From Eledone cirrhosa (taxonomy: Eukaryota): a DNA stretch of 64,000 bases. Shown piece by piece: positions 13,253 to 43,200 of the stretch. Within the stretch, counting starts at the first letter, position 1; each line of letters opens with the position of its first letter. Below the pieces are notes generated by a model. It was not told where the DNA came from. It was given only the letters and a program-made list of their open reading frames with translations, and searched no databases. Location of the stretch: the NCBI GenBank assembly GCA_964016885.1, contig OZ024741.1, forward strand, positions 36,022,001 through 36,086,000. Direction: 5' to 3'. The translations under genes and the position numbers were made by a program.

Positions 13253-13765
13253 ATATATATATATATATACACATATATATATATATACACATATATATAT
13301 ATATATATACACACACACATATATAGGGTGTCCCAAAAAAATATATACATACATACATACATATATACATGATGGTTATCTGCTCTTTGCAATTGTTCTT
13401 TTTTTTATTAAGCATGAGATGTTAAATGACTTTTGAGTCCTGAAAGCCATTTGAAGAATTGACCAGAAATACTGTAACAATGTGTCATATCAGGATTGGC
13501 TCCATTTTCTATTGGTTTATTGAGGATATTCAAGAGTTACTTCAATCCTCCACATGGCTTGCAGGTTTTAAAACTGGTCATCTGGCATGATATTCTCATA
13601 ATCTACATGTGTCTTACCTGTATGGGCATGCTGGTGTGATTTCAGACCAACATAAATTAGGGATACTTTTTTGCATAAGGAACATTTATAGAAAGAATGA
13701 GAATCCATCCCAATGCTATTGCTATTAATCTCATTTTTATGTACTTTTTATTTCAACATTCTTAA

Positions 13766-17549: not shown

Positions 17550-17814
17550 ACTACAGCCTTACTTATTTTTTCAAGTCTGGTACTTATTTTATCCATCTCC
17601 TTTTGTCAAACTGCTAAGTTTCAAGGCACAAACAAATAGTAGATAGACAATGGGTTTCCACAGTTTCTGTCTACTAAATTTCACTCACAAGGTATTGATC
17701 AAACCATGGTTTTAGTAGCAGACAGTTTCCCAAGGTTCCATGCAGTGGAACTGAAGCCAAAACAATGTGGCTTTGAAGCAAACTCCTAAACCACACAGCC
17801 ATACCTCTGCACCT
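17550..17814 (-). mobile_element. Degenerate tRNA-derived SINE; a more decayed relative lies at ~17120-17260
   Basis: Reverse complement TGGCTGTGTGGTTTAGGAG...GCTTCAGTTCCACTGCATGGAACCTTGGGAAAC (A/B boxes plus CORE-like start). Confidence 0.6.
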
Positions 17815-18164
17815 ATAACCACACAAACAATAGTTTTCAATGCGCAAGAGCTGCTGGAATGCAACTGTCAAAGAATGAGAAAAGATATAGAAATAACTAT
17901 GGTAAGAAACTAGACGAAAATAATGAAGAATTTGAAGGTCATCTTCAGTTGATTTAACTAACTGCATTAGATATAAGAACTACACAAATATTAGTAGATG
18001 TGTGGAATCTGTATACAAATAAGCCAAGTGTAAAATCACCTTTAAAAGCATAAAAATAGCATAATATTGGCAGAATATAAAATATTATTTTATAAAGGTC
18101 AGTTATTCTTTTTTTTACAATGCATGGTTGGTTACATTAATGGTATAATCTTATAAAAAGAATA

Positions 18165-18340
18165 ATAGTTTCTGATTTAGACACATGGGAGGATAGGAAA
18201 GTCAGTTCTCCAGTACATTGCTGGTATTATATTTTATCAAAATAATGTTGATATCAGTGGAATTTGAACCCAGAATATAGAGGGCCATAACAAAATACTG
18301 CAATGCATTTCATCTGACATGCTAACGATTCTACCAATTC
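18165..18340 (-). mobile_element. Degenerate SINE related to 17298-17511
   Basis: Reverse complement TTGGTAGAATCGTTAGCATG...TTCTGGGTTCAAATTCC...GATAAAATATAATACCAG...TCTAAATCAGAAAC. Confidence 0.55.
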
Positions 18341-18486
18341 ATAACATATATAGAATAATACACCTTACACCTTAATGAAAGTCAAAAAATATCAGTTTGT
18401 TCCAAAATTCATCAAAAGCATATTTATCATTTCCTGTTCAGATGTTATAAAGATTTGTTTAGGCTTTATCAACAGGCTATTACATA

Positions 18487-18681
18487 TACGAGAGTTGACT
18501 GAAACATTCATTAGCTGACTATGAAGGAGTGATACTAGAGCTGTGAAATGTTGCATGCATTAATTTCAACCCTACTCTTCTTATCAATATACTTTTTTTT
18601 CTTTTCATGAACTATGTTGAAAAATAAACCTCATTTGATCATTCCATGAGAGTATTTTGTCAGCCTATGAACTTTTCAGCC
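18487..18681 (+). mobile_element. Internally deleted mariner (MITE-like); right TIR runs into the satellite
   Basis: Left end TA|CGAGAGTTGACTGAAACATTCATTAGCTGAC. Right end GTCAGCCTATGAACTTTTCAGCC (18659-18681) matches the left-end reverse complement at 18/23 positions. A transposase C-terminal remnant YVEK* is at 18613-18627. Confidence 0.8.
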
Positions 18682-20176
18682 TATTAACTCTTCAGGCTAT
18701 TAACTCTTCACCCTAAGAACTCTTCAGCCTATGAACTCTTCTGCTATGGAGTCTTCAGCCTATGAACTCTTCACCCTTACAACTCTTCAGCCTATGTACT
18801 CTTCAGCCTATGAACTCTTCACCCTAAGAACTCTTCAACCTATGGACTCTTCAGCCTATGAACTCTTCACCCTTAGAACTCTTCAGGCTATTAACTCTTC
18901 ACCCTAAGAACTCTTCAGCCTATGAACTATTAACCCTAAGAACTCTTCAGCCTATGGACTCTTCAGCCTATGGACACTTCAGCCTATGAACTCTTCACCC
19001 TAAAAACTCTTCAGACTATGAACTCTTCAGCCTATGAACTCTTCAGCCTATGAATTCTTCACACTAAGACCTCTTCAGCCGATGAACTCTTCAAACTATG
19101 GACTCATCAGCCTATGGACTCTTCACCCTAAGAACTCTTCAGCCTATGGACTCTTCAGCCTATGGACACTTCAGCCTATGAACTCTTCACCCTAAGAACT
19201 CTTCAGCCTATGAACTCTTCAGCCTATGAACTCTTCAGTCTATGAACTCTTTACCATAAGAACTCTTCAGCCTGTGAACTCATCACACTAAGAACTCTTC
19301 AGCCTATGGGCTCTTCACCCTAAGAACTCATCAGCCTATGGACTCTTCAGCCTATGAACTCTTCATTCTATTGACTCTCCAGACTATGGACTCTTCACCC
19401 TAAGAACTCTTCGGCCTATGGAATCTTCACACTAAAATCTGTTCACCCTGAGAACTCTTCAGCCTATGAACTCTACACACTTAGAACTCTTCAGGCTATT
19501 ATCTCTTCACACTACGAACTCCTCAGCCTATGAACTCTTCACCCTACGAACTCTTCAGCCTATCGACTCTTCAGCCTATGGACTCTTCAGCCTATAGACT
19601 ATTCAGCCTATGGAACCTTCAGCCTATGAACTCTTCACACTAAGAAATCTTCAGCCTTTGAACTATTCAGCCTCTGAACTCTTCACCCTAAGAACTCTTC
19701 AGCCTATGGACTCTTCAGACTATGAACTCTTCAGCCTATGGACTCTTCACCCTAAGAACGCTTCAGCCTATGGACTCTTCCGCCTATGAACTCTTCACCA
19801 TTAGAACTCTTCAAGCTATTATCTCTTCACCCCAAGAACTCTTCAGCCTATGAATTATTCACCCTAAGAACTCTTCAGCCTATCGACTCTTCAGGCTATG
19901 GACTCTTCAGCCTATAGACTCTTCAGCCTATGGACATTTCAGCCTATGAACTCTTCATACTAAAATCTCTTCAGCCTATGAACTCTTCACCCTAAGTAAT
20001 ATTCAGCCTATGGACTCTTCAACCTATGGACTCTTCACCCTAAGAACTCTTCAGCCTATGAACTCTTCAGCCTATGGACTCTTCTGCCTATAAACTCTTC
20101 ACCCTAAGAACTCTTCAGCCTATGGACTCTTCACCGTAAGAACACTTCAGGCTATGGACTCTTCAACCTATGAACT
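18659..20176 (+). repeat. 16-bp satellite, edge segment
   Basis: Tandem (A/G)ACTCTTCAGCCTATG and AACTCTTCACCCTAAG monomers. Confidence 0.98.
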
Positions 20177-20542
20177 TGTAGCGGGATTACTGGTTGCATG
20201 AATGTAACAAAACGAGACAATGTTTGTGTATATAATATTTAATTAACGGTAGATAGAATACTTGACATGTCAAAGATAGATGTTAGAATGAAACAAAGTT
20301 AGCAGTTACCGTTTTGATTGCCAGGCAAACGCGGCTGGCAGAGGGCGCCTGGCTAAGGCCAGGCGCCTGTTGGCCAAATTAATGGCAGAGCCAAATGAGA
20401 AGACTCTTGACCTGGTGCCGAAAAGGCAAAGAGAGAGAGGAAGCTCAAAGCCGCCAGTTTTATAGGGCTCTGACCGGAAGTCGCAGAAAGGGCTCCACCT
20501 CCCGTCCAGATCCCAACCAAAACAAGGGAGACAACCGCTACA

Positions 20543-20558
20543 TAACCTCCCGCCAGAA
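20543..20558 (-). promoter_or_regulatory. Polypurine tract
   Basis: TTCTGGCGGGAGGTTA immediately precedes the 3' LTR; it is identical to bases 1-16. Confidence 0.75.
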
Positions 20559-20872
20559 TTTTAGTGTATAAAAATCGAAATGAAAATATGTAGCAAGTTG
20601 GCGAGAATGTTGTAACAGGCATGAAAATTACGACAAAAGAATGTTTGGAAAAATCAATGCTAGATATCAAGGTAGTAAAGTAAGGGAAGGGCTCAAAGTT
20701 CAAATGTACAAAATATAGTTCACTGGTGTGCAATCACATGACCGCAGGAAAGAAAGTGTGTTCCAGAGAATGAATGCAGGTGGTCTCTGTTCTGTGGTAT
20801 ATCGTGAATTTCCAACCTCCGAATGGATTTTCTCACAGGAAGAGTGCTGCAAAAATAAATTCTCTGGCTTTG

Positions 20873-20874
20873 GT

Positions 20875-20906
<32 letters not shown>

Positions 20907-21046
20907 CTGCTGCTGTATTGCTGTTGCTGCTGCTGTTGCTGTTGTTGCTGCTGTAGTTGCTGTTGCTGCTGCTGTATTGCTGTTGCTGCTGTATTGAAGT
21001 TGCTGCTGTATTGCTGTTGCTGCTGCTGTTGTTGCTGCTGCTGTTG
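20873..21046. repeat. (CAG/CAA)n trinucleotide tract inside the LTR element
   Basis: Direct reading (TGC/TGT on the + strand). Confidence 0.95.
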
Positions 21047-21528
21047 TCTCGCTGAGTGAGCGTATTCGGTGTTTCAACTCACAGTAGACAAAAAATTTTT
21101 CAGAAAAAATGAGTTGCGCAAAGTGCTAGAAATAGCAGCCGAAGTTGATGGTCGATGTTGAGAATGCGTTGATCTGGAAGGGTCCAGAGGCCAGCGACCA
21201 GAGAAATAAGCATTCTTACTAAATGCGCGGTTATCAACGGTAAATTTACATTGCAAACTTATAAACCGGCAAAGAGAAGAATGTAGCTTAAGGCTGAAGA
21301 ATCCTTGGGGGAGAAATGCTATCTCTGGCGTGCGGCTGTCTGTGAGTAAGAGACATCTCAGTGAATCGAGAATTTATGCTGCCTACACGTGCCAATACAA
21401 GGTTGAAAAAAAATATTTCTAACACGCGATAAAATGATAGTGCAATTTTGAAAGTGACCATGATGAAAAAGAAAGGCTTCCATCAGCATAATTATAGGTG
21501 TGAACTTTGGAAAAAAACAAAAAACTAG

Positions 21529-21564
<36 letters not shown>

Positions 21565-21886
21565 TGTTTTGAAAGAGTTCGTTGTAAGAAACGAGAAACA
21601 TATATATATATATATCGTGAAATGTTTTTTTTTTTTTTTTTTTTTTTTTTTTTGTAAGTGTTCGTTGTAAGAAACGAGAAACATATATATATTGGTGAAA
21701 TGCGACAGTTAATTGATGCGTGAGAGAAAAAGTATGTCTGTGCGAATTCCACATGTGCGTGTGTGCGTGTCCTTGAGTATTTTCATAGTTTGTCGCTAAA
21801 TTTGCTGTGTATTCGTAATGTTACTCACAAAACCAGATGTGCTATTTTTTTCTTTTTTTGGGGGGTGACCACTTATAGCGATGAAC

Positions 21887-21918
21887 GGCTGCGTGTTCGT
21901 ATCACGTCAGGGTTACCA
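21887..21918 (-). promoter_or_regulatory. Extended primer-binding site complementary to the tRNA-Trp 3' end
   Basis: The + strand reads GGCTGCGTGTTCGTATCACGTCAGGGTTACCA, against the recalled metazoan tRNA-Trp end GGCTGCGTGTTCGAATCACGTCGGGGTCACCA (29/32). It lies 1 nt from the 5' LTR. Confidence 0.85.
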
Positions 21919-22285
21919 ATGTAGCGGGATTACTGGTTGCATGAATGTAACAAAACGAGACAATGTTTGTGTATATAATATTTAATTAACGGTAGATAGA
22001 ATACTTGACATGTCAAAGATAGATGTTAGAATGAAACAAAGTTAGCAGTTACCGTTTTGATTGCCAGGCAAACGCGGCTGGCAGAGGGCGCCTGGCTAAG
22101 GCCAGGCGCCTGTTGGCCAAATTAATGGCAGAGCCAAATGAGAAGACTCTTGACCTGGTGCCGAAAAGGCAAAGAGAGAGAGGAAGCTCAAAGCCGCCAG
22201 TTTTATAGGGCTCTGACCGGAAGTCGCAGAAAGGGCTCCACCTCCCGTCCAGATCCCAACCAAAACAAGGGAGACAACCGCTACA

Positions 22286-25200
22286 AACTCTTCAGCCTAT
22301 GGACATTTCAGCCTATGAACTCTACATACTAAAATCTATTCAGCCTATGAACTCTTCACCCTAAGTACTCTTCAGCCTATGGACTCTTCAACCTATGGAC
22401 TCTTCACCCTAAGAACTCTTCAGCCTATGAACTCTTCAGCCTATGGACTTTTCAGTCTATGAACTCTTCACCCTAAGAACTCTTCAGTCTATGAACTCTT
22501 TAGCCTATGGACTCTTCAGCCTATGGACTCTTCACCCTAAGAACTCTTCACACTAAGAACTCTTCAGCCTATGAACTCTTCACCCTAAGTACTCTTCAGC
22601 CTATGAACTCTTCAACCTATGGACTCTTCACCCTAAGAACTCTTCAGCCTATGGAATCTTCAGCACATGAACTCTTTACCCTAAGAACTCTTCAGCCTGT
22701 AAATTCTTCATGCTAAGAACTCTTCAGCCTATAGACTCTTCACCCTAAAAACTCTTCAGTCTATGGACTCTTCAGGATATTAACTCTTCACCCTAAGAAC
22801 TCTTCAGCCTATGTACTCTTCACCCTAAGAACTCTTCAGCCTATGGACTCTTCAGCCATTGAACTCTTCACCCTAAGAACTCTTCAGCCTATGGACTCTT
22901 CAAACTTTGAACTCTTCAGCCTATGAACTCTTCAGACTATGGACTCTTCAGCCTATGAATTATTCACCATAAGAACTCTTCAGCCTATAAACTCTTCAAC
23001 CTATGGACTCTTCAGCCTATGGACTGTTCAACCTAAGAACTCTTCAGCCTATGGGCTCTTCAGCCTATGAACACTTAAGCCTATTGGACTCTTCACACTA
23101 AGAACTCTTCAGCCTATGAACTGTTCATCCTAAGAACTCTTCAGCCTATGGACTCTTCATCCTATGGACTCTTCAGCCTATGAACTCTTCACCCTAAGAA
23201 CTCTTAAGCCTATGAACTCTTAAGCCTATGAACTCTTCAGCCTATGAACTCGTCACCATAAGAACTCTTCAGACTATGAACTCTTCAGCCTATGAACTCT
23301 TCAGCTTATTGACTCTTCAGCCTATGAAATCTTCAACCAATGGACTCTTCAACCTATGAACACTTCAGCCTATGAAATATTCAGTCTATGAACTATTCAG
23401 CCTATAGACTCTTCAGCCTATGAACTCTTGAGCCTATGGACTGTTCCCCCTAAGAACACTTCAGCTTATGAACTCTTCAGACTATGAACTCTTCAGGCTA
23501 TAAAATCTGCACCCTAAGAAATCTTCAGCCTATGAACTTTTCACCATAAGAACTCTTCAGCCTGAGGACTTTTCACCCTAAGAACTCTTCAGCCTATGAA
23601 CTGTTCACTCTTAGAGCTCTTTAGCCTAAGAACTGTTCAGCCTATGGACTCTTCAGCCTATGAATTCTTCTCCTTTAGAACTTGTCGGCACATGAAAGCT
23701 TCACCCTAAGAACTCTTCAGCATATGGACTCTTCAGCCTATGAACTCTTCAGCCTATGGACTATTCAGCCTATGGACTTTTCATTCTAAAAACTATTGAG
23801 TCTATAGACTTTTCATCCTAAAAACTCTACAGCCTATGAACTCTTCAGCCTATGGTCTCTTCAGCCTATGAACTCTTCAGCCTATGGACTCTTCAGCCTA
23901 TGAAATCTTCACACTTAGAACTCTTCAGGCTATTAACTCTTCACCCTAAGAACTCTTCAGCCTATGGACTCTTCAGACAATGGACACTTCAGCGTATGAA
24001 CTCTTTACCCTAATAACTCTTCAGCCTGTGGACTCTTCACCCTAAGAACTCTTCAACCTATGGGCTCTTCACCCTAAGAACTCTTCAGCCTGTGGACTTT
24101 AAGCCTATGTACTCTTCAACCTATGGACTCTTCAGCATATGGACTCTTCACCCTAAGAACTCTTCAGCCTATGGACTCTTCAGCCTATGAACTCTTCAGC
24201 CTACGGACTCTTCACACTAGGAACTCTTCAGCCTATCAACTCTTCAGTCTATGAACTCTTCACCCTAAGAACTCTTCAGCCTATGGACTCTTCACCCTAA
24301 TAACTATTCAGCCTATGAACTGTTCACACTAAGAACTCTTCAGCCTAAGAACTGTTCAGCCTATGGACTCATCAGCCTACTAACTCTTCACCCTATGGAC
24401 CCATCAGCCTATGGACTCTTCACTCTAAGAAATATTTAACCTATGGACTCTTCAGCCTATGGTCTCTTCAGCTTGTGAACTCTTCAGCCTATTGACTCTT
24501 CAACCAATGGACTCTTCATCCTAAGTAAGCTTCAGTCTATGGACGCTTCACACAAAGAACAGTTCACCCTTAGAACTCTTCAGCCTATGAAGTCTTCACC
24601 TTTAGAACTCTTCAGGCTATTATCACTTCAACCTAAGAATTCTTCAGCCTATGAACTCTTCACCCTAAGAACTCTTCAGCCTATGGTCTTTTCAGCCTAT
24701 GAACTCTTCACCTTAGAACTCTTCAATCTATTATCTCTTCACCCTGCAGAACTCTTCAGCCTGTGAACTCTTCACCGTAAGAACTCTTCAGCCTATGAAC
24801 TCTTCAGCCTATGAACTCTTCAGTCTATGGACTCTTCAGCCTATGAAGTCTTCACCCTAAGCACTCTTCAGCCTATGAACTCTTCACCATAAGAACTCTT
24901 CAGCCTATGGATTCTGCACCCTAAGAACTCTTCAGCCTATGAACTGCTCACTCTTAGAACTCTTCAGCCTAAGAACTGTTCAGCCTATGGACTCTCAGCC
25001 TATGAATTCTTAACCCTTAGAACTCTTCAGCCTATGGACTCTTCACCCTAAGAACTCTTCAGCCTATGGACTCTTCAGCCTATGGAAACTTCAGCCTATG
25101 AACACTTTACCTTAAGAACCCTTCAGCCTGTGAAGTCTTCACCCTAAGAACTCTTAAGCCTATGGGCTCTTCACCCTAAGAACTCTTCAGCCCGTGGACT

Positions 25201-28200
25201 TTCAGCCTATGAACTCTTCAACCTATGGACTCTTCACCCTAAGAACTCTTCAACCTATGGACTCTTGAGGCTATTAGCTCTTCACCCTAAGAATTCTTCA
25301 GCCTATGAATTCTTCAAACTAAGAACTCTTCTGCCTATGAACTCTTCAGCCTATGAACTCTTCAGTCTATGAACTTTTCACCCTAACAACTCTTCAGCCT
25401 ATGAACTCTTCACCTTAAGAACTCTTCAGCCTATGGATCTTCACCCTAAGAACTCTTCAGCCTATGGACTTTCAGCATATGTACTCTTCAATCTATGGAC
25501 TCTTCAGCATATGGACTCTTCACCCTAAGAACTCTTCAGCCTATGGACTCTTCACCCTAAGAAATATTCAGCCTATGAACTGTTCACACTAAGAACTCTT
25601 CCGCCTAAGAACTCTCAGCCTATGAACTCTTCACACTTAGAACTCTTCAACTTAAGAACTCTTCAGCCTATGGACTCTTCAGCCTATGAACTCTTCACCC
25701 TATGGACACTTCAGCCTATGGACTCTTCACTCTAAGAAATCTTAAGCCTATGGATTCTTCAGCCTATGGTCTCTTCAGCCTGTGAACTCTTCAGCCTATG
25801 GACTCTTCAACCTATGGACTCTTCACCCTAAGAACTCTTCAGCCTATGGACTCTTCACCCTAAGAAAAGTTCACCCTTAGAACTCTTCAGCCTATGAACT
25901 CTTCATCCTTAGAACTCTTCAGGCTATTATCACTTCGACCTAAGAATTCTTCAGCCTATGAACTCTTCACCCTTAGAACTCTTCAGCCTATGGATTTTTC
26001 AGCCTAGAGACTCTTCAGCCTATGGACACTTCAGCCTAAGAACTCTTCATACTAAGAACTCTTCAGCCTATGAACTCTTCACCCTAACAACTCTTCAGCC
26101 TATGGACTTGTCAGACTATGGACTCTTCACCCTAAGAACTCTTCAGCCTATGGACTTTTCAACCTATGAACTCTTCATCCTTAGAACTCTTCAGGCTATT
26201 ATCTCTTCACTCTGAGAACTCTTCAGCCTATGAACTCTTCACCCTAAGCACTCTTCAGCCTATGGACTCTTCAGTCTATGGACTCTTCACCCTAAGATCT
26301 CTTCAGCCTATGAACTCTTCAGCCTATGGAATCTTCAGCACATGAATTCTTTACGCTAAGAACTCTTCAGCCTATAAACTCTTCAAGCTAAGAACTCTTC
26401 AGCCTATAGGCTATTCACCCTAAGAACTCTTCAGCCTATGGACTCTTCAGCCATTGAACTCTTCACCCTATGAACTCTTCAGCCTATGGACTCTTTAACC
26501 TATGAACTCTTCAGCCTATGGACTCTTCAGTCTATGAACTCTTTACCCTAAGCACTCTTCAGCCTGTGAACTCTTCACACTAAGAACTCTTCAGCCTATG
26601 GACTCTTCAGCCTATGAAATCTTCACCCTAACAACTCTTCAGCCTATGAACTCTTCAACCTATGGAATCTTCAGCCTATGGACTTTTCACCCTAAGAACA
26701 CTTCAGCCTATGGATTTTTCAACCTATGAACTCTTCAACCTATGAACACTTCAGCCTATGAATTCTTCACCCTAAGAACTCTTCAGCCTATGAACTCTTC
26801 AACGTATGGACTCTTCAGCCTATGGACTCTTCACACTAAGAACTCTTCAGCCTATGGACTCTTCATCCTATGAATTCTTCAGCCTATGAAATCTTCAACC
26901 TATGGACTCTTCACCCTAAGAACTCATGAGCCTATGGACCGTTCAGCCTATGAACTCTTTAGCCTATTGGACTCTTCACCCTAACAACTCTTCAGCCTAT
27001 ATACTGTTCACCCTAAGAACTCTTCAGCCTATGGACTCTTCAGCCTATGGACTCTTCAGCCTATGAACTCTTCACCCTAAGAACTTTTCAGCCTATGGAC
27101 TCTTCAGCCTATGAAATTTTCAACCAATGGACTCTTCAAACTATGAACTCTTCAGCCTATGAACTCTTCAGTCTATGAACTATTCAGCCTATAGACTCTT
27201 CAGTCTATGAACTATTGAGCCTATGGACTCTTCACCCTAAGAACTCTTCAACCTATGGACTCTTGAGGCTATTAGCTCTTCACCCTAAGAATTCTTCAGC
27301 CTATGAATTCTTCAAACTAAGAACTCTTCTGCCTATGAACTCTTCAGCCTATGAACTCTTCAGTCTATGAACTTTTCACCCTAACAACTCTTCAGCCTAT
27401 GAACTCTTCACCTTAAGAACTCTTCAGCCTATGGATCTTCACCCTAAGAACTCTTCAGCCTATGGACTTTCAGCATATGTACTCTTCAATCTATGGACTC
27501 TTCAGCATATGGACTCTTCACCCTAAGAACTCTTCAGCCTATGGACTCTTCACCCTAAGAAATATTCAGCCTATGAACTGTTCACACTAAGAACTCTTCC
27601 GCCTAAGAACTCTCAGCCTATGAACTCTTCACACTTAGAACTCTTCAACTTAAGAACTCTTCAGCCTATGGACTCTTCAGCCTATGAACTCTTCACCCTA
27701 TGGACACTTCAGCCTATGGACTCTTCACTCTAAGAAATCTTAAGCCTATGGATTCTTCAGCCTATGGTCTCTTCAGCCTGTGAACTCTTCAGCCTATGGA
27801 CTCTTCAACCTATGGACTCTTCACCCTAAGAACTCTTCAGCCTATGGACTCTTCACCCTAAGAAAAGTTCACCCTTAGAACTCTTCAGCCTATGAACTCT
27901 TCATCCTTAGAACTCTTCAGGCTATTATCACTTCAACCTAAGAATTCTTCAGCCTATGAACTCTTCACCCTTAGAACTCTTCAGCCTATGGATTTTTCAG
28001 CCTAGAGACTCTTCAGCCTATGGACACTTCAGCCTAAGAACTCTTCATACTAAGAACTCTTCAGCCTATGAACTCTTCACCCTAACAACTCTTCAGCCTA
28101 TGGACTTGTCAGACTATGGACTCTTCACCCTAAGAACTCTTCAGCCTATGGACTTTTCAACCTATGAACTCTTCATCCTTAGAACTCTTCAGGCTATTAT

Positions 28201-31200
28201 CTCTTCACTCTGAGAACTCTTCAGCCTATGAACTCTTCACCCTAAGCACTCTTCAGCCTATGGACTCTTCAGTCTATGGACTCTTCAACCTAAGATCTCT
28301 TCAGCCTATGAACTCTTCAGCCTATGGAATCTTCAGCACATGAATTCTTTACGCTAAGAACTCTTCAGCCTATAAACTCTTCAAGCTAAGAACTCTTCAG
28401 CCTATAGGCTATTCACCCTAAGAACTCTTCAGCCTATGGACTCTTCAGCCATTGAACTCTTCACCCTATGAACTCTTCAGCCTATGGACTCTTTAACCTA
28501 TGAACTCTTCAGCCTATGGACTCTTCAGTCTATGAACTCTTTACCCTAAGCACTCTTCAACCTATGAACTCTTCAGCCTATGAATTCTTCACCCTAAGAA
28601 CTCTTCAGCCTATGAACTCTTCAACCTATGGACTCTTCAGCCTATGGACTCTTCACACTAAGAACTCTTCAGCCTATGGACTCTTCATCCTATGAATTCT
28701 TCAGCCTATGAAATCTTCAACCTATGGACTCTTCACCCTAAGAACTCATGAGCCTATGGACCCTTCAGCCTATGAACTCTTTAGCCTATTGGACTCTTCA
28801 CCCTAACAACTCTTCAGCCTATATACTGTTCACCCTAAGAACTCTTCAGCCTATGGACTCTTCAGCCTATGAACTCTTCACCCTAAGAACTTTTCAGCCT
28901 ATGGACTCTTCAGCCTATGAAATCTTCAACCAATGGACTCTTCAAACTATGAACTCTTCAGCCTATGAACTCTTCAGTCTATGAACTATTCAGCCTATAG
29001 ACTCTTCAGTCTATGAAGTATTGAGCCTATGGACTCTTCACCCTAAGAACTCTTCAGCGTATAAACTCTTCAGCCTATGAACCCTTCAGTCTATAAAATC
29101 TGCACCCTAAGAACTCTTCAGCCTATGAACTATTCACGATAAGAACTCTTCAGTCTGAGGACTCTTCACCCTAAGAACTATTCAGCCTATGGGCTCTTCA
29201 GCCTATGAATTCTTCAGCCTATGGACTATTCATCCTATGGATTTTCATCCTAAAATCTCTACAGCCCATGAAATCTTCAGCCTATTGACACTTCAGCCTA
29301 TGAACTCTTCACACTAAGAACTCTTCAGCCTATGGACTCTTCACCCTAAGAACTCTTCAGTCTATGAACTCTTCAGCCTATGGACTCTTCAGCCTATCAA
29401 CTCTTCACGCTTAGAACTCTTCAGCTTATGAACTCTTCACACTAAGAACTCTTCAGCCTATGGAGTTTCAGCCTATGTACTCTTCAACCTATGGACTCTT
29501 CAGCATATGGACTTTTCGCCCTAAGAACTCTTCAGTCTATGGACTCTTCAGCCTATGAACTCTTCAGCCTATGGACTCTTCACACTAGGAACTCTTCAGC
29601 CTATCAACTCTTCACTCTATGAACTCTTCACCCTAAGAACTATTCAGCCTATGAACTGTTCACACTAAGAATTCTTCAGCCTAAGAACTGTTCAGCCTAT
29701 GGATTCTTCAGCCTTAGAATTCTTCAGCCTATGAACTCTTCAGCCTATGAAATCTTCACCCTATGGACACTTCAGCCTATGGAGTCTTCAATCTAAGAAA
29801 TCTTTAGCCTATGGACATTTCAGCCTATGGTCTCTTCAGCCTGTGAACTCTTCAGCCTATGGACTCTTCATCCTATGGACTCTTCACCCTAAGAACTCTT
29901 CAGCCTATGAACTCTTCACCCTTAGAACAGTTCACCCTTAGAACTCTTCAGCCTATGAACTCTTCACCCTAAGAACAGTTCACCCTTAGAACTCTTCAGC
30001 CTATGAACTCTTCACCCTTAGAACTCTTCAGGCTATTATCACTTCAAACTAAGAATTCTTCACCCTAAGAACTCTTCAACCTATGGACTCTTCAGCCTAT
30101 TGACTTTTCACCCTAAGAACTCTTCATCCTATGGACTCTTCAGCCTATGAACTCTTCAGCCTATGAAATCTTCAGCCTTTTGGACTCTTCACACTAAGAA
30201 CACTTCAGCCTATGAACTGTTCACCCTATGAACTCATCAGCCTATGGACTCTTCAGCCTAAGGACACTTCAGCCTATGAACTTTTCACCCTAAGAACTCT
30301 TCAGCCTATGATCTCTTCAGCCTAGGAACTCGTCACCCTAAGAACTCTTCAGACTATGATCTCTTCAGCCTATGGACTCTTCAGTCTATGAAATCTTCAA
30401 CCAATAGACTCTTCAACCTATGAACTCTTCACCCTATGAAATCTTCAGTCTATGGACTATTCAGCCTATAGACTCTTCAGCCTATGAACTCTTGAGCCTA
30501 TGGACTCTTCACCCTAAGAATTCTTCAGCTTATGAACTCTTCAGCCTATGAACTCTTCAGTCTATAAAATCTGCACCCTAAGAACTCTTCACCATAAGAA
30601 CTCTTCAGCCTATGAACTCTTCACCCTAAGAACAGTTCACCCTTAGAACTCTTCAGCCTATGAACTCTTCACCCTTAGAACTCTTCAGGCTATTATCACT
30701 TCAAACTAAGAATTATTCAGCCTATGAACTCTTCACCCTAAGAACTCTACAACCTATGGACTCTTCAGCCTATTGACTTTTCACCCTAAGAACTCTTCAG
30801 CCTTTGGACTCTTCAGCCTATGAACTCTTCAGCCTTTTGGACTCTTCACACTAAGAACTCTTCAGCCTATGAACTGTTCACCCTATGAACTCATCAGCCT
30901 ATGGACTCTTCAGCCTAAGGACACTTCAGCCTATGAACTCTTCACCCTAAGAACTCTTCAGCCTATGAACTCGTCACCCTAAGAACTCTTCAGACTATGA
31001 ACTCTTCAGCCTATGAACTCTTCAGCCTATGGACTCTTCAGTCTATGAAATCTTCAACCGATAGACTCTTCAACCTATGAACTCTTCACCCTATGAAATC
31101 TTCAGTCTATGGACTATTCAGCCTATAGACTCTTCAGCCTATGAACTCTTGAGCCTATGGACTCTTCACCCTAAGAATTTTTCAGCTTATGAACTCTTCA

Positions 31201-34200
31201 GTCTATAAAATCTGCACCCTAAGAACTCTTCACCATAAGAACTCATCAGCCTATGAACTGTTCACTCTTAGAGCTCTTCAGCCTAAGAACTTTTCAGCCT
31301 ATGGCTCTTCAGCCTATGAATTCTTCTCCCTTAGAACTTTTCGGCACATGAACTCTTCAAGCTAAGAACTCTTCAGCCTATGGACTCTTCAGCCTATGAA
31401 CTCTTCAGCCTATGGACTATTCAGCCTATGGACTTTTCATCCTAAAAACTCTACAGCCTATGGAATCTTCAGCCTATTGACACTTCAGCCTATGAACAAT
31501 TCACACGAAGAACTCTTGAGCCTATGAACTCTGCAGCCTATGAACTCTTCACTCTAAGAACTCTTAAGCCTATGGACTCTTAAGCCTATAAACTCTCTTC
31601 AGCCTATGGACTCTTCAGCCTGTGGACTCTTCACCCTAAGAACTCTTCAGCATATGGACTCTTCACCGTAAAAACTCTTCAGCCTATGGACTCTTCAGCC
31701 TATGAACTCTTCAGCCTACGGACTCTTCACACTAGGAACTCTTCAGCCTATCAACTCTTCAGTCTATGAACTCTTCACCCTAAGGACTCTTCAGCCTATG
31801 GACTCTTCACCCTAAGAACTATTCAGCCTATGAACTGTTCACACTAAGAACTCTTCAGTCTAAGAACTGTTAAGCCTATGGACTCATCAGCCTATGAACT
31901 CTTCACCCTATGGACACTTCAGCCTATGGATTCTTCACTCTAAGAAATCTTTAACCTATGGACTCTTCAGCCTATGGTCTCTTCAGCCTGTAAACTCTTC
32001 AGCCTATGGACTCTTCAACCTATGGACTCAACCCTAAGCACTCTTCAGTCTATGGACTCTTCACACTAAGAACAGTTCACACTTAGAACTCTTCAGCCTA
32101 TGAACTCTTCACCCTAAGAACTCTTCAGACTATGGAATCTTCAGCCTATGGACTCTTCAGCCTAGAGACTCTTTAGCCTATGGACAATTCAGCCTATGAA
32201 CTCTTCACCCTTAGAACTCTTCAGACTATCGAATCTTCAGCCTATAGACTCTTCAGCCTAGAGACTATTCAGGCTATGGACTCTTCAGCCTATAGACTCT
32301 TCATCCTATGGACATTTCAGCCCATGAACTCTTTACACTAAGAACTCTTCAGCCTATGGATTCTTCATCCTAAGAACTCTTCCGCATAAGAACTCTTCAG
32401 CCTATGGACTCTTCAGCCTATAAATTCTTCACACTTAGAACTCTTCAGCCTATGAATTCTTCATCCTAATAACTTAACTCTTCAGCCTATGGACTCTTCA
32501 GCCTATGGATTATTCAGCCTATGAACTATTTACCCTAAGAGCTCTTCAGCCTGTGAAGTCTTCAGCCTAAAAACTCTTCAGCCTATGAACTCTTCAGCCT
32601 ATGAACTATTTACCCTGGAGAACTCTTCAGTCTGTGAACTCTTCACCCTAAGAACTCTTCAGCCTATGAACTCTTCAGCCTATGAACACATCAGTCTATG
32701 GACTATTCAGCCTATGAAGTTTTCACCCTAAGCACTCTTCAGCCTATGAACTCTTGACCATAAGAACTCTTCAGCCTATGGATTCTTCACCCTAAGAATT
32801 CTTCAGCCTATGAACTGTTCACTCTTAGAACTCTTCAGCCTAAGAACTGTTCAGCCTATGGCCTCTCAGCCTATGAATTCTTAACACTTAGAACTCTCCA
32901 CCCTATGGACTCTTCACCCTAAGAATTCTTCAGCCTATGGACTCTTCAGCCTGTGAACTCTTCAGCCTATGGACTCTTCAGCCTATGGAAACTTCAGCCT
33001 ATGAACACTTTACCTTAAGAACTCTTCAGCCTGTGAACTCTTCACCCTAAGAACTCTTCAGCCTATGGGTACTTCACCCTAAGAACCCTTCAGCCTATGA
33101 ACTATTGAGGCTATTAGCTCTTCACCCTAAGAACTCTTCAGCCTATGAATTCTTCATCCTATGAACTCTTCAGCCTATGAACTCTTCACACTTAGAACTC
33201 TTGAGCCTATGAACTCTTCACTCTAAGAACTCTTCAGTCTATGGTCTCTTTTGGCTATGAACTCTTCCGCCTATAGACTCTTCAGCCTATGGTCATTTTA
33301 GCCTATGAACTCTTTACACTAAGAACTCCTCAGCCTATGGTCTCTTCACCCTAAGAACTCTTCAGCCTATGGATTTTTCAGCCTATGAACTCTTCACCCT
33401 ATGGACACTTCAGCCTATGGATTCTTCACTCTATGAAATCTTTAGCCTATCGACTCTTCAGCCTATGGACTCTTCAGCTTGTGAACTCTTCAGCCTATGG
33501 ACTCTTCAACATATGGACTCTTCACCCTAAGAACTATTCAGCCTATGGACTCTTCACCCTAAGAACAGTTCACCCTTAGAACTCTTCAGCCTATGAACTC
33601 TTCATCCTTAGAACTCTTCAGGCTATTATCACTTCAACCTAAGAATTCTTCAGCCTATGAACTCTTCACCCTAAAAACCTTTCAGCCTATGGACTCTTGA
33701 GCCTATGGACTCTTCAGCCTAGATACTCTTCAGCCTATGGACACTTCAGCCTATGAAATCTTTACACTAAGAACTCTTCAGCCTATGAACTCTTCACCCT
33801 AACAACTCTTCAGCCTATGGACTCGTCAGCCTATGAACTCTTCAGCCTATTGACTCTTCAGCCTATGGACTCTTCACCCTAAGAACTCTTCAGCCTATGG
33901 ATTTTTCAGCCTATGAACTCTTCACCCTTAGAACTCTTCAGGCTATTATCTCTTCACCCTGAGAACTCTTCAGCCTATGAACTGTTCACCCTAATAACTC
34001 CTCAGCCTATGGACTCTTCAGGCTATGGAATCTTCAGCACATGAATTCTTTACCCTAAGAACACTTCAGCCTGTAAACTCTTCACGCTAAGAACTCTTCA
34101 GCCTATAGGCTCTTCACCCTAAGAACCCTTCAGCCTATGGACTCTTCAGCCATTGAACTCTTCCCCCTAAGAACTCTTCAGCCTATGAACTTTTCAACCT

Positions 34201-37200
34201 ATGGAATCTTCAGCCTATGGACTTTTCACCCTAAGAACTCTTCAGCCTGTGAACTCTTCACACTAAGAACTCTTCAGCCTATCGACTCTTCAGCCTATGA
34301 ACTCTTCACACTAAGAACTCTTCAGCCTATGGACTCTTCAACCTATGGAATCTTCAGCCTATGGACTTTTCACCCTAAGAACACTTTAGCCTATGGATTC
34401 ATGAACCTATGAACGCTTCAGTCTATGAACTCTTCAGACTATGGACTCTTCAGCCTATGAATTATTCACCCTAAGATCTCTTCAGCCTATGAACTCTTTA
34501 ACCTATGAACTCTTCAGCCTATGGACTCTTCACCCTAAGAACTCTTCAGCCTATGGACTCTTCAGCCTATGAACTCTGCATCCTATGAAATCTTCGACCT
34601 ATGGACTTTTCACCCTAAGAACTCATTAGCCTATGGACAGTTCAGCCTATGAACCTTTCAGCCTATTGGACTCTTCAGCCTAACAACTCTTCAGCCTATC
34701 AACTCTTCACCCTAAGAACTCTTAAGCCTATGAACTTGTTACTCTAAGGACTCTTCAGACTATGAACTCTTCAGCCTATGGACTATTCAGCCTATGAAAT
34801 CTTAAACCAATGGACTCTTCAACCTATGAACTCTTAAACCTATGAACTCTTCAGTCTATGAACTATTCAACCTATAGACTCTTCAGCCTATAAACTCTTG
34901 AGCCTATGGAGTCTTCACCCTAAGAACTATTCAGCGTATGAACTCTTCAGCCTATGAACTCTTCAGTCGATAAAATATGCACGCTAAGAACTCTTCAGCC
35001 TATGAACTCTTCACGATAAGAACTCTTCAGCCTATAAACTGTTCACCCTAAGAACTCTTCAGCCTATGAATTCTTCAGCCTATGGACTATTCAGTCTATG
35101 GACTTTTCATCCTAAAAACTCTACAGCCTATGAAATCTTCAGCCTATGAACTCTTCACACTAAGAACTCTTCAGCCTATGGACTCTTCAGCCTATGAACT
35201 CTTCAGCCTATGGACTCTTCAGCCTATGAAATCTTCACACTTAGAACTCTTCAGCCTATGAACTCTTCGCCTTAAGAACTCTTCAGCCTATGTACTCTTC
35301 ACCCTAAGAACTCTTCAGTCTATGAACTGTTCACTCTTAGAACTCTTCAGCCTAAGAACTGTTCAGCCTATGGACTCTTCAGCCTATGAACTCTTCACGC
35401 TTAGAACTCTTCATCCTAAGAACTCTTCAGCCTATGGACTTTCAGCCTATGTACTCTTCGCCCTAAGAACTCTTCAGCCTATGGACTCTTCAGCCTATGA
35501 ACTTTTCAGCCTATGGACTCTTCACACTAGGAACTCTTCAGCCTATCAACTCTTCACTCTATGAACTCTTCACTCTAAGAACTCTTCAGCCTATGGACTC
35601 TTCATCCTAAGAAATATTCAGCCTATGAACTGTTCACACTAAGAATTCTTCAGCCTAAGAACTGTTCAGCCTATTGACTCTGCAGCCTATGAACTCTTCA
35701 CCATAAGAACTCTTCAGCCTATGGACTCTTCAGCCTATGAACTATTCACCCTATGGACACTTCAGCCTATGGACTCTTCACTCTAAGAAATCTTTAGCCT
35801 CTGGACTCTGCAACCTATTGGTTCTTCACCCTAAGAACTCTTCAGCCTATGGACTCTTCGCCCAAAGAACAGTTCACCCTTAGAACTCTTCAGGCTATTA
35901 TCACTTCAACCTAAGAATTCTTCAACCTATGAACTCTTCACCCTAAGAACTCTTCAGACTATGGAATTTTCTGCCTATGGACTCTTCAGCCTAGAGACTC
36001 TTCAGCCTATGGACACTTCCGCCTATGAACTCTTCACACTAATAAATCTTCAGCCTATGAACTATGCACCATAACAACTCTTCAGCCTATGGATTCGTCA
36101 GCCTATGAACTCTTCAGCCTATTGACTCTTCAGCCTATGGACTCTTCACCCTAAGAACTCTTCAGCCTATAGATTTTCAGCCTATGAACTCTTCAACCTT
36201 AGAACTTTCAGGCTATTATCTCTTCACCCTGAGAACTCTTCAGCCTGTGAACTCTTCACCCTAAGAACTCTTCAGCCTATGGACTCTTCACCCTAAGAAC
36301 TCTTCAGCGTATGGACTCTTCAGCCTATGGAAACTTCAGTCTATGAACACTTTACCTTAAGAACACTTCAGTCTGTGACCTCTTCACTCTAAGAACTCTT
36401 CAGCCTATGGGCTCTTCACCCTAAGAACTATTCAGCCTGTGGATTTTAAGCCTATGAACTCTTCAACCTATGGACTCTTCACCCTAAGAACTCTTCAGCC
36501 TATGGACTCTTCACGCTATTAGTTCTTCACCCCTAAGAAATCTTCAGCCTATGAATTATTCACCCTAAGAACTCTTCAGACTATGAACTCTTAAACTTAA
36601 GAACTCTTCAGCCTATAGACTCATCACCCTAAGAATTCTTCAGTCTATGAACTGTTCACTCTTAGAAATCTTCAGCCTAAGAACTGTTCAGCCTATGGAC
36701 TCTTCAACCTATGAACTCTTCAACCTATGGACTCTTCAGCCTATCGACTCTTCAGCCTATGAACTCTTTACCCTAAGAACTTTTCAGCCTGGGAATTCTT
36801 CACACTAAGAACTCTTCAGCCTATGGATTCATCAACCTATGAACGCTTCAGTCTATGAACTCTTCAGCCTATGGATTCTTATGCTTATGAACTCTGCAGC
36901 CTATGAAATCTTCAACCTATGGACTCTTCACCCTAAGAACTCATCAGCCTATAGACAGTTGAGCCTATGGTCTCTTCAGCCTATGGACTCTTCAGCCTAT
37001 GAACTCTTTACCCTAAGAACTCTTCAGCCTATGAACTCTTCAGCCTATGAACTCGTTACTCTAAGAACTCTTCAGACTATGAACTCGTCAGCCTATGAAC
37101 TCTTCAGCCTATGGACTCTTCACCCTAAGAACTCTTCAGCCTATGGATTTTTCAGCCTATGAACTCTTCACCCTTAGAACTCTTCAGGCTATTATCTCTT

Positions 37201-40200
37201 CACCCTGAGAACTCTTCAGCCTATGAACTGTTCACCCTAAGAACTCCTCAGCCTATGGACTCTTCAGGCTATGGAATCTTCAGCACATGAATTCTTTACC
37301 CTAAGAACACTTCAGCCTGTAAACTCTTCACGCTAAGAACTCTTCAGCCTATAGGCTCTTCACCCTAAGAACCCTTCAGCCTATGGACTCTTCAGCCATT
37401 GAACTCTTCCCCCTAAGAACTCTTCAGCCTATGAACTTTTCAACCTATGGAATCTTCAGCCTATGGACTTTTCACCCTAAGAAAACTTCAGCCTATGGAC
37501 TCTTTAGTCTATGGAATCTTCAGCCTATGAACTCTTTACCCTAAGAACTCTTCAGCCTGTGAACTCTTCACACTAAGAACTCTTCAGCCTATCGACTCTT
37601 CAGCCTATGAACTCTTCACACTAAGAACTCTTCAGCCTATGAACTCTTCAACCTATGGAATCTTCAGCCTATGGACTTTTCACCCTAAGAACACTTTAGC
37701 CTATGGATTCATGAACCTATGAACGCTTCAGTCTATGAACTCTTCAGACTATGGACTCTTCAGCCTATGAATTATTCACCCTAAGATCTCTTCAGCCTAT
37801 GAACTCTTTAACCTATGAACTCTTCAGCCTATGGACTCTTCACCCTAAGAACTCTTCAGCCTATGGACTCTTCAGCCTATGAACTCTGCATCCTATGAAA
37901 TCTTCGACCTATGGACTTTTCACCCTAAGAACTCATTAGCCTATGGACAGTTCAGCCTATGAACCTTTCATCCTATTGGACTCTTCAGCCTAACAACTCT
38001 TCAGCCTATCAACTCTTCACCCTAAGAACTCTTAAGCCTATGAACTTGTTACTCTAAGGACTCTTCAGACTATGAACTCTTCAGCCTATGGACTATTCAG
38101 CCTATGAAATCTTAAACCAATGGACTCTTCAACCTATGAACTCTTAAACCTATGAACTCTTCAGTCTATGAACTATTCAACCTATAGACTCTTCAGCCTA
38201 TAAACTCTTGAGCCTATGGAGTCTTCACCCTAAGAACTATTCAGCGTATGAACTCTTCAGCCTATGAACTCTTCAGTCGATAAAATATGCACGCTAAGAA
38301 CTCTTCAGCCTATGAACTCTTCACGATAAGAACTCTTCAGCCTATAAACTGTTCACCCTAAGAACTCTTCAGCCTGTGAATTCTTCAGCCTATGGACTAT
38401 TCAGTCTATGGACTTTTCATCCTAAAAACTCTACAGCCTATGAAATCTTCAGCCTATGAACTCTTCACACTAAGAACTCTTCAGCCTATGGACTCTTCAG
38501 CCTATGAACTCTTCAGCCTATGGACTCTTCAGCCTATGAAATCTTCACACTTAGAACTCTTCAGCCTATGAACTCTTCGCCTTAAGAACTCTTCAGCCTA
38601 TGTACTCTTCACCCTAAGAACTCTTCAGTCTATGAACTGTTCACTCTTAGAACTCTTCAGCCTAAGAACTGTTCAGCCTATGGACTCTTCAGCCTATGAA
38701 CTCTTCACGCTTAGAACTCTTCATCCTAAGAACTCTTCAGCCTATGGACTTTCAGCCTATGTACTCTTCGCCCTAAGAACTCTTCAGCCTATGGACTCTT
38801 CAGCCTATGAACTTTTCAGCCTATGGACTCTTCACACTAGGAACTCTTCAGCCTATCAACTCTTCACTCTATGAACTCTTCACTCTAAGAACTCTTCAGC
38901 CTATGGACTCTTCATCCTAAGAAATATTCAGCCTATGAACTGTTCACACTAAGAATTCTTCAGCCTAAGAACTGTTCAGCCTATTGACTCTGCAGCCTAT
39001 GAACTCTTCACCATAAGAACTCTTCAGCCTATGGACTCTTCAGCCTATGAACTATTCACCCTATGGACACTTCAGCCTATGGACTCTTCACTCTAAGAAA
39101 TCTTTAGCCTCTGGACTCTGCAACCTATTGGTTCTTCACCCTAAGAACTCTTCAGCCTATGGACTCTTCGCCCAAAGAACAGTTCACCCTTAGAACTCTT
39201 CAGGCTATTATCACTTCAACCTAAGAATTCTTCAACCTATGAACTCTTCACCCTAAGAACTCTTCAGACTATGGAATTTTCTGCCTATGGACTCTTCAGC
39301 CTAGAGACTCTTCAGCCTATGGACACTTCCGCCTATGAACTCTTCACACTAATAAATCTTCAGCCTATGAACTATGCACCATAACAACTCTTCAGCCTAT
39401 GGATTCGTCAGCCTATGAACTCTTCAGCCTATTGACTCTTCAGCCTATGGACTCTTCACCCTAAGAACTCTTCAGCCTATAGATTTTCAGCCTATGAACT
39501 CTTCAACCTTAGAACTTTCAGGCTATTATCTCTTCACCCTGAGAACTCTTCAGCCTGTGAACTCTTCACCCTAAGAACTCTTCAGCCTATGGACTCTTCA
39601 CCCTAAGAACTCTTCAGCGTATGGACTCTTCAGCCTATGGAAACTTCAGTCTATGAACACTTTACCTTAAGAACACTTCAGTCTGTGACCTCTTCACTCT
39701 AAGAACTCTTCAGCCTATGGGCTCTTCACCCTAAGAACTATTCAGCCTGTGGATTTTAAGCCTATGAACTCTTCAACCTATGGACTCTTCACCCTAAGAA
39801 CTCTTCAGCCTATGGACTCTTCACGCTATTAGTTCTTCACCCCTAAGAAATCTTCAGCCTATGAATTATTCACCCTAAGAACTCTTCAGACTATGAACTC
39901 TTAAACTTAAGAACTCTTCAGCCTATAGACTCATCACCCTAAGAATTCTTCAGTCTATGAACTGTTCACTCTTAGAAATCTTCAGCCTAAGAACTGTTCA
40001 GCCTATGGACTCTTCAACCTATGAACTCTTCAACCTATGGACTCTTCAGCCTATCGACTCTTCAGCCTATGAACTCTTTACCCTAAGAACTTTTCAGCCT
40101 GGGAATTCTTCACACTAAGAACTCTTCAGCCTATGGATTCATCAACCTATGAACGCTTCAGTCTATGAACTCTTCAGCCTATGGATTCTTATGCTTATGA

Positions 40201-43200
40201 ACTCTGCAGCCTATGAAATCTTCAACCTATGGACTCTTCACCCTAAGAACTCATCAGCCTATAGACAGTTGAGCCTATGGTCTCTTCAGCCTATGGACTC
40301 TTCAGCCTATGAACTCTTTACCCTAAGAACTCTTCAGCCTATGAACTCTTCAGCCTATGAACTCGTTACTCTAAGAACTCTTCAGACTATGAACTCGTCA
40401 GCCTATGAACTCTTCAGCCTATGGACTCTTCAGCCTATGAAATCTTCAACCAATGGACTCTTCAACCTATGAAATCTTCAGACTATGAACTCTTCAGTCT
40501 ATGAACTATTCACCCAATAGACTCTTCAGCCTATGAATTCTTGAGCCTATGGACTCTTCACCCTAAGAACTCTTCAGCGTATGAACTCTTCAGCCTATGA
40601 ACTCTTCAGTTTATAAAATCTGCACCCTAAGAACTCTTTAGCCTATGAACTCTTCACGATAAGAACTCTTCAGCCTGAGGACTCTTCACCCTAAGAACTG
40701 TTCAGCCTATGGACTCTTCAGCCTATGAATTCTTCAGTCTATGGTCTATTCGGCCTATGGACTTTTCATCCTAAAATCTCTACAGCCTATGAAATCTTCA
40801 TCCTATTGACACTTCAGCCTATGAACTCTTCACACTAAGAACTCTTCAGCCTATGGACTCTTCACCCTAAGAACTCTTCAGCCTATGGACTCTTCAGCCT
40901 GTGAAATCTTCAGCCTATGGACTCTTCAGCATATGGACTCTTCAGCCTATGGGCTCTTCACCCTAAGAACTCTTCATCCTATGGACTCTTCACCCTAAGA
41001 ACTCTTCATCCTATGAACTCTTCACCCTAAATACCCTTCAGCCTATGGATTATTCAGCCTATGGACTCTTCAACCTAAGAACTCTTCAGCCTATGAACTC
41101 TTCAACCTATGGCCTCTTCAGCTTATGGACTCTTCCCCCTATGAACTCTTCAGTCTATGAAATCTTCACCCTAAGAAATCTTCAGCCTATGAACTCTTCA
41201 ACCTATGGACTCTTCACACTAAGAACTGATCAACCTATGGACTCTTCAGCCTATGAATTCTTCCGCCTGTGGGCTCTTCACCCTAAGAACTCTTCAGCCT
41301 ATGGACTCTTCAGACTATGAAATCTTCACACTTAGAACTCTTCAGCCTATGGACTCTTCACCCTAAGAACTCTTCAGGCTGTGAACTGTTCACTCTTAGA
41401 ACACTTCAGCGTAAGAACTGTTCAACCTATGGACTCTTCAGCCTATGAACTCTTCAGGCTTAGAACACTTCAGCGTACGAACTCTTCACCCTAAGAACTC
41501 TTCAGCCTATGGACTCTTCAGCCTATGAACTATTCACCCTATGGACACTTCAGCCTATGGACTCTTCACTCTAAGAAATCTTTAGCCTCTGGACTCTGCA
41601 ACCTATTGGTTCTTCACCCTAAGAACTCTTCAGCCTATGGACTCTTCGCCCAAAGAACAGTTCACCCTTAGAACTCTTCAGGCTATTATCACTTCAACCT
41701 AAGAATTCTTCAACCTATGAACTCTTCACCCTAAGAACTCTTCAGACTATGGAATTTTCTGCCTATGGACTCTTCAGCCTAGAGACTCTTCAGCCTATGG
41801 ACACTTCCGCCTATGAACTCTTCACACTAATAAATCTTCAGCCTATGAACTATGCACCATAACAACTCTTCAGCCTATGGATTCGTCAGCCTATGAACTC
41901 TTCAGCCTATTGACTCTTCAGCCTATGGACTCTTCACCCTAAGAACTCTTCAGCCTATAGATTTTCAGCCTATGAACTCTTCAACCTTAGAACTTTCAGG
42001 CTATTATCTCTTCACCCTGAGAACTCTTCAGCCTGTGAACTCTTCACCCTAAGAACTCTTCAGCCTATGGACTCTTCACCCTAAGAACTCTTCAGCGTAT
42101 GGACTCTTCAGCCTATGGAAACTTCAGTCTATGAACACTTTACCTTAAGAACACTTCAGTCTGTGACCTCTTCACTCTAAGAACTCTTCAGCCTATGGGC
42201 TCTTCACCCTAAGAACTATTCAGCCTGTGGATTTTAAGCCTATGAACTCTTCAACCTATGGACTCTTCACCCTAAGAACTCTTCAGCCTATGGACTCTTC
42301 ACGCTATTAGTTCTTCACCCCTAAGAAATCTTCAGCCTATGAATTATTCACCCTAAGAACTCTTCAGACTATGAACTCTTAAACTTAAGAACTCTTCAGC
42401 CTATAGACTCATCACCCTAAGAATTCTTCAGTCTATGAACTGTTCACTCTTAGAAATCTTCAGCCTAAGAACTGTTCAGCCTATGGACTCTTCAACCTAT
42501 GAACTCTTCAACCTATGGACTCTTCAGCCTATCGACTCTTCAGCCTATGAACTCTTTACCCTAAGAACTTTTCAGCCTGGGAATTCTTCACACTAAGAAC
42601 TCTTCAGCCTATGGATTCATCAACCTATGAACGCTTCAGTCTATGAACTCTTCAGCCTATGGATTCTTATGCTTATGAACTCTGCAGCCTATGAAATCTT
42701 CAACCTATGGACTCTTCACCCTAAGAACTCATCAGCCTATAGACAGTTGAGCCTATGGTCTCTTCAGCCTATGGACTCTTCAGCCTATGAACTCTTTACC
42801 CTAAGAACTCTTCAGCCTATGAACTCTTCAGCCTATGAACTCGTTACTCTAAGAACTCTTCAGACTATGAACTCGTCAGCCTATGAACTCTTCAGCCTAT
42901 GGACTCTTCACCCTAAGAACTCTTCAGCCTATGGATTTTTCAGCCTATGAACTCTTCACCCTTAGAACTCTTCAGGCTATTATCTCTTCACCCTGAGAAC
43001 TCTTCAGCCTATGAACTGTTCACCCTAAGAACTCCTCAGCCTATGGACTCTTCAGGCTATGGAATCTTCAGCACATGAATTCTTTACCCTAAGAACACTT
43101 CAGCCTGTAAACTCTTCACGCTAAGAACTCTTCAGCCTATAGGCTCTTCACCCTAAGAACCCTTCAGCCTATGGACTCTTCAGCCATTGAACTCTTCCCC

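Follow-up and report, generated by a model that had tools for sequence, protein, structure and literature searches.

Results

Features of the locus

The window analysed here, the whole 64,000-nucleotide stretch at G000:C2:36,022,001-36,086,000 of a 3.0-Gb genome that, judging by the resemblance of its SINEs, is probably an octopus genome, contains a short non-autonomous mariner element (a MITE) whose right TIR passes directly into a tandem array of 16-bp units. Tandem Repeats Finder placed the 16-bp arrays at 18660-20176 and 22286-63987 of the window, on either side of an LTR element. The features are as follows.

18487..18681, plus strand: non-autonomous mariner MITE, with the majority base of 29 other copies at 169 of 190 aligned bases
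18487..18519, plus strand: TA and left TIR of the MITE, 33 bp including the TA
18613..18627, plus strand: last transposase codons, YVEK followed by a stop, the same as in parent copies L149, L186 and L218
18659..18681, plus strand: partial right TIR, consisting of TCAGCC (18660), 10 bp and TCAGCC (18676), with the final 10 TIR bases absent
18660..20176, plus strand: proximal 16-bp array, about 95 units
20177..22285, minus strand: non-coding LTR element of 2,109 bp, with TG...CA ends, two 366-bp LTRs showing 0 differences and an AACT target duplication
22286..64000, plus strand: main 16-bp array, which runs past the window and gives way to a Penelope-like fragment at G000:C2:36,263,669

The preliminary description of this DNA had reported the TA with its left TIR, the transposase codons and a right TIR holding TCAGCC twice, 16 bp apart, and all were present where it had placed them. 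The 16-bp repetition that it had put at more than 45 kb is in fact much longer (220,901 bp), but it is not continuous, being split by the LTR element.

Three LINE-like reverse transcriptase elements lie 5′ of the MITE (window 430-2931, 5193-8795 and 10799-13375), with frames of up to 858 aa. No host gene was seen near the array start, and an Rfam search of window positions 1-24000 gave 0 matches.

The MITE is a deletion derivative of a mariner

A DNA search with window positions 18480-18690 returned 3,697 candidates, the best 40 of which scored at 83-87% identity. Alignment of 29 copies defined an element of 202 bp including both TAs, with TIRs of 33 bp including the TA. Both TIRs follow one consensus, in which two TCAGCC hexamers stand 16 bp apart; the monomer thus lies inside the family TIR, as had been proposed. 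The family terminus is GACCCTCGTA. The preliminary description had expected a terminus close to AACYCTCGTA, and this has to be replaced: AACTCTCGTA is a left-end variant private to the window copy. After removal of two double-counted rows and with L012 left out, 17 of 28 distinct copies had TA at both ends, and each end taken singly had it in 21 of 28. The TA duplication described earlier therefore holds for other members of the family; for the window copy it is not demonstrable, because only the left TA is present. Genome-wide, allowing up to 2 mismatches, there were 1,916 matches to the right end of the MITE and 1,235 to the left.

Four longer copies (L144, L149, L186 and L218) have both MITE halves in common and carry broken transposase frames, two or three of which end in YVEK and a stop. 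Since both halves align to the ends of these longer transposase copies, the MITE is an internal deletion derivative of a mariner, whose parent measured about 1.2 kb or more. Pfam HTH_48 or Transposase_1 was matched by four of five transposase pieces; Transposase_1 was above cut-off in L186 (1.6e-11) and L144 (8.6e-7), and HTH_48 just under cut-off in L186 and L149. The closest solved structures to the parent transposase were Mos1 and SETMAR. By hand count, 34 residues separate the second and third catalytic D in L186 (QDNAP...YSPDLAPS); the third is N in the decayed L186 and D in L144. The TA target, TIRs near 30 bp, transposase domains and D34D spacing identify the element as a mariner (DD34D), in agreement with the earlier assignment, and the short, non-coding, high-copy derivative that retains the ends of this parent is a MITE. 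The motif pair QDNA-YSPDLAP is present in whitefly irritans lineages, according to a passage of PMC8664452, and is a lead only as to subfamily. The parent copies were obtained from TIR pattern matches. A search with PF01359 had yielded other mariner families at its 30 best loci, and only L091 held a stray MITE half.

The two ends of the MITE differ at TIR position 10. The base at the left position (window 18496) is nearly random (35, 28, 27 and 13 of 103 copies); at the right end the corresponding position has G in 61 of 94 copies and never C, in a sample partly selected for G. This contrast is a second asymmetry of the MITE ends, beside the one described below. The left TIR terminus of the window copy (18487-18502) reads AACTCT on the reverse strand, identical to the array's private six bases, which may be chance or may mean that the array variant derived from the lost right terminus. 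Several copies (L159, L166, L168, L175, L204 and L206) hold a SINE inside their AT-rich middle. The MITE also seeds longer tandem repeats: about 6 copies of 109-bp right-half units at L299 (G000:C12:36,985,850-36,986,500), with further clusters on C12; 170-bp units made of the MITE left end and flank at L300 (C1:235,628,340-235,628,920); and 143/159-bp MITE cores joined via a common CTATGAA at L189 (C5:15,960,000-15,960,900).

The array repeats the TIR interval in register over 221 kb

We followed the array beyond the window through twenty adjoining stretches to its end at extended position 241,669, which is G000:C2:36,263,669. Without the LTR insert it comprises 220,901 bp (about 221 kb) and 13,814 parsed head-to-tail units, the long array expected of satellite DNA, and 13,482 of these units are exactly 16 bp in length. 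Unit 1 (18660-18675) is the TIR interval itself, identical at 16 of 16 bases. The array consensus matches the interval in register at 15 of 16 bases, for which the chance at a fixed start is near 4e-8 (15 or more matches), and the sole difference falls at position 15. There the 13,482 units have C in 88.6% and T in 3.4%, and unit 1 ends in AACTTT, consistent with the earlier observation that the first unit is TIR-type and later units are mostly of the C variant. The change is abrupt: unit 2 already has the C variant, all three unit types that dominate the array (1,672, 1,556 and 1,058 of the 13,814 units) occur within the first 20 units, and beyond unit 1 the array start is no more TIR-like than the remainder.

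Blocks inside the array are duplicated in nested fashion, at lags that range from 125 to 2,308 units and include 125, 207, 362, 175, 271, 979 and 1,045. The 1,045-unit block (16.7 kb) is a near-perfect duplicate that may have arisen in assembly. Sequence shared with the rest of the array is lowest in its final 1,300 or so units.

The LTR element, whose strand was inferred from primer-site-like and purine-rich ends, is a very recent insertion, as its LTRs are identical. Together with the AACT target duplication, this indicates that the array was continuous before the element arrived. It contains long T runs and a CAG/CTG-rich tract, and its primer site (minus strand) resembles, we presume, tRNA-Trp.

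At the far end, where the preliminary description had proposed looking for a TIR terminus followed by unique flank, the last array unit instead adjoins the 3′ portion of a multi-copy element; about 1 kb further on there is an assembly gap of 200 N. Other copies of this element carry reverse transcriptase and GIY-YIG-like frames, motifs from which we take it to be Penelope-like. The TIR terminus was absent at the far array end and over the next 222 kb, which hold only two separate MITE copies.

A single large array and a ladder of small ones

A diagnostic 30-mer matched the genome exactly at 471 places, every one of them inside the array. A looser dimer pattern gave 402 matches, 313 in the array and 89 outside; among the 89, as far as positions were among the matches listed, at least 15 fell in one small array on C1, leaving 74 without placement, 65 of them on the minus strand and possibly marking a further array of middling size. 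Neither pattern indicated a second array of similar size in the assembly. The satellite thus occupies one locus in the assembly, rather than the several loci over which satellites may be spread, and neither pattern revealed an older large array outside a TIR context of the kind that would have spoken against birth here.

Other MITE copies hold 0, 1, 2, 3, 4, 5, 12 and about 29 units. TIRs with zero units gave 265 pattern matches, and all 30 that were fetched stood in TIR context. When 136 right ends were parsed, 71 had one unit, 59 two units, 3 three units, and one each had four, five and 12; as these loci were chosen by pattern the counts are not frequencies, and six of the two-unit calls are really junctions of tandem MITE cores. 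Besides the big array, ten copies with at least three units were read, and 10 of 10 were in right-TIR context, which for these copies answers the earlier question whether other arrays of this monomer begin in TIRs; the three-unit locus L127 lacks the usual MITE core upstream. The C1 array follows a MITE 3′ half, has 27 units plus two decayed ones homogenised to their own variant, and closes with the TIR terminus. A recognisable terminus closes most expanded copies, and smaller arrays open and close on the flanking direct repeat (for example L141, L128 and L298), whereas the far end of the big array is cut by another repeat. The parent-type, transposase-bearing copy L186 also has a duplicated unit, with a private base in both units. 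No stage was found on this ladder between about 29 and 13,800 units.

In L141 (G000:C5:23,453,563-23,453,653) the five units alternate between variants, a 32-bp higher-order repeat at birth. A group of 17 identical zero-unit right ends clusters on G000:C24 and C26 and was probably carried within another repeat or a duplicated block.

Units are gained almost only at the right TIR

With up to 2 mismatches allowed, 190 right ends matched the gain pattern and 1,916 matched the plain one, a share of about 9% for gains, and 27 of the best 30 right matches that were read were true gains. The left gain pattern occurred at 15 places, just one of them a true gain, and plain left ends numbered 1,235. When the right side was restricted to its 65 best matches, the odds ratio was 42 (p = 7e-13). 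Losses, in contrast, occurred at both ends: of 86 exact matches, a hand count put 34 at the left and 52 at the right, 17 of the right losses, on C24 and C26, looking like duplicates; the test, performed on 33 and 53, gave p = 0.9.

The two ends also differ in predicted folding. A hairpin with a 7-bp stem encloses the inner hexamer at the left end (-3.9/-4.5 kcal/mol left versus -1.2/-1.1 right), and the mean fold energies over 53 and 127 real ends were -3.2/-3.8 left versus -1.35/-1.2 right. End folds of L014, a single copy with a mutated left stem, gave no signal. The left hairpin, by hiding the inner hexamer needed for slip-back, is the most likely reason why gains prefer the right TIR; as the cause of the polarity it is a candidate to which we give slightly less than even credence. 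A hairpin blocks slip-back in one synthesis direction only, and so may not alone explain a bias of about 40-100-fold.

The array in other sequencing runs

Runs X5 and X6 (organism D), which may come from the assembly's own source sample, reached a summed depth of 15,000-75,000 over the array units, compared with about 13 for unique flank. In X1, from a relative (organism A), the MITE family was present, as was the flank (about 90% identical), and array units had a depth of 0-480; a contig of 642 nt covers flank 17796-18321. The MITE family was present in X2 and X3 and the flank was not. RAD runs X8 and X9 had 10-20 reads on array units, too few to size the array. Among the contigs listed none bridged flank, MITE and array, and 18380-18461 was uncovered in every contig run. 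Because contigs show presence and not absence, a recent, species-specific origin of the array is only hinted at by these runs.

Discussion

Origin of the array

The array starts in register in the right TIR of a MITE, and probably grew there from the 16-bp interval of that TIR. Birth in place is favoured by the identity and register of the monomer with the TIR interval, by the single locus and by the ladder of unit numbers in other copies, and these also support the proposal in the preliminary description that the satellite is an expanded TIR born in situ. The MITE would have inserted at a TA; slippage or microhomology repair between the two hexamers would then have produced a dimer. As a dimer offers longer homology, further slippage could have extended it to tens of units while the private T-to-C change at position 15 became fixed, just as the copy of about 29 units fixed a different variant. 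Unequal exchange would subsequently have duplicated blocks of 100-1,000 units until 221 kb was reached. Slippage, the mechanism suggested earlier, can thus explain the first units, but the bulk of the array was built by duplicating such blocks. Retroelements would have come later: the LTR element close to the MITE, and at the other extremity of the array a Penelope-like element whose insertion may have displaced or removed the TIR terminus. Two other schemes were rejected: insertion of the MITE into an older satellite, by the register, the 15/16 identity and the ladder; and retrotransposition with tail slippage, by the TIR terminus that expanded copies retain after their repeats.

The missing far TIR end would be accounted for if the array had been born in another MITE copy or an extrachromosomal circle and joined here by recombination via the common 16-22 bp. 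Such a history would also fit the C variant from unit 2 on and the presence of all three main unit types within the first 20 units. We nevertheless consider it very unlikely, as the assembly holds no donor array, the join is in perfect register, and gain in place is common among MITE copies. Less probable still is an assembly artefact affecting the junction or the array's length. The near-perfect 16.7-kb duplicate and the gap 1 kb past the array are what one might cite for it, but the array is mostly diverged with nested blocks, short reads cover its units at thousands-fold depth, a misjoin would hardly fall in register by chance, and the junction recurs in small arrays.

Growth in place may have had an inherited beginning. 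A master MITE already carrying two units in its right TIR could have spread by transposition, with only later growth in situ, and this would explain the right bias. It is a possibility we regard as rather unlikely, though it has evidence on its side: about 9% of right ends have the gain pattern, the subfamily tree of copies is star-shaped and so compatible with one origin, and the first two units do not have private bases in common significantly more often than chance would give (4 of 59 duplicated copies versus 1.85 by permutation, p = 0.10). Against a single inherited dimer, however, 30 expanded and 45 plain copies were not separated by any core position beyond one site (p = 0.015, uncorrected), and the expansion label takes 28 changes on the tree versus 23 in shuffles. 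In addition, all four bases occur at left position 10 among expanded copies, and a transposase-bearing copy is duplicated too. The right bias might otherwise come from the transposase, if the right end were nicked or cut more often and break repair duplicated the interval. End asymmetry is known in mariners, and one-sided gains with two-sided losses are not what plain replication slippage predicts. But one consensus serves both TIRs, there is no direct sign of cutting, and all parent copies read are broken, which makes this explanation doubtful.

Returning to birth in place, we tentatively suggest, at rather less than even likelihood, that the first duplication recurs independently on thousands of identical TIR templates, that the hairpin serves as a one-way valve through which loss is allowed and gain blocked, and that one copy ran away to become a 221-kb species-specific satellite attached to its parent. 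The array most likely reflects neutral repeat growth, with no function implied.

Relation to known systems

Minisatellite birth offers a close parallel. In the model of Haber and Louis (1998), as summarised in a passage of review PMC6947457, a unit between direct repeats of 5-10 bp is duplicated by slippage or unequal crossing-over and then amplified. Here, too, the unit is flanked by short direct repeats, duplicated and amplified. The difference is that the template is a TIR present in thousands of copies, so that the birth is replayed many times, and that one copy has reached 221 kb, far above minisatellite size.

Arrays associated with DNA transposons have also been described. Within the TIR of Tetris of Drosophila virilis, satellite-like arrays (TIR-220) are amplified; PMC4079207 describes a foldback element, probably of Mutator type, whose long TIRs already have 220-bp tandem repeats and whose assembled arrays reach at most 66 copies. 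In contrast, the mariner TIR is short and without a tandem repeat, its unit is 16 bp, and about 13,800 units stand at one locus; most copies have one unit, and the left end is almost never expanded, unlike the repeats at both ends of Tetris. In Xenopus, miDNA4 and Xstir/Xmix are MITE-linked satellites with varied array lengths for which microhomology was proposed, and for miDNA4, a Tc1/mariner MITE, capture of a pre-existing internal repeat has been proposed (passages of PMC12628747 and PMC9659126). The unit described here is instead cut from the TIR itself, and its gains are one-sided. Mouse Ms6-hm and Hm-2 are tandem arrays in MaLR LTRs (passage of PMC9659126). They resemble our array in being an expanded short-unit array at a single locus inside a transposon copy, with the difference that theirs is a retrotransposon LTR and ours a mariner TIR. 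The units of Ms6-hm and Hm-2 are pentamers or tetramers, and their arrays are much shorter.

A literature search that covered few subscription papers turned up no earlier description of this MITE, no satellite derived from a short mariner TIR and no comparable polarity between transposon ends. The part of the octopus repeat annotation PMC13282606 that was available had no passage on the MITE or the array, and its supplements or repeat library may list the MITE.

The finding points to no new biological function. Its value lies elsewhere: the first units of a satellite are usually inferred after the trace has been lost, and here the template, stages from 0 to about 29 units and the large product are found in one genome. 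The two TIRs of each copy are a built-in control, and the MITE system makes it possible to measure how fast units are gained and lost at either end, how local secondary structure influences this and how slippage gives way to block duplication. Transposon-derived satellites are already known and the class of mechanism is familiar; what is unusual is the complete ladder, the attached 221-kb product at a single locus and the one-sided gain.
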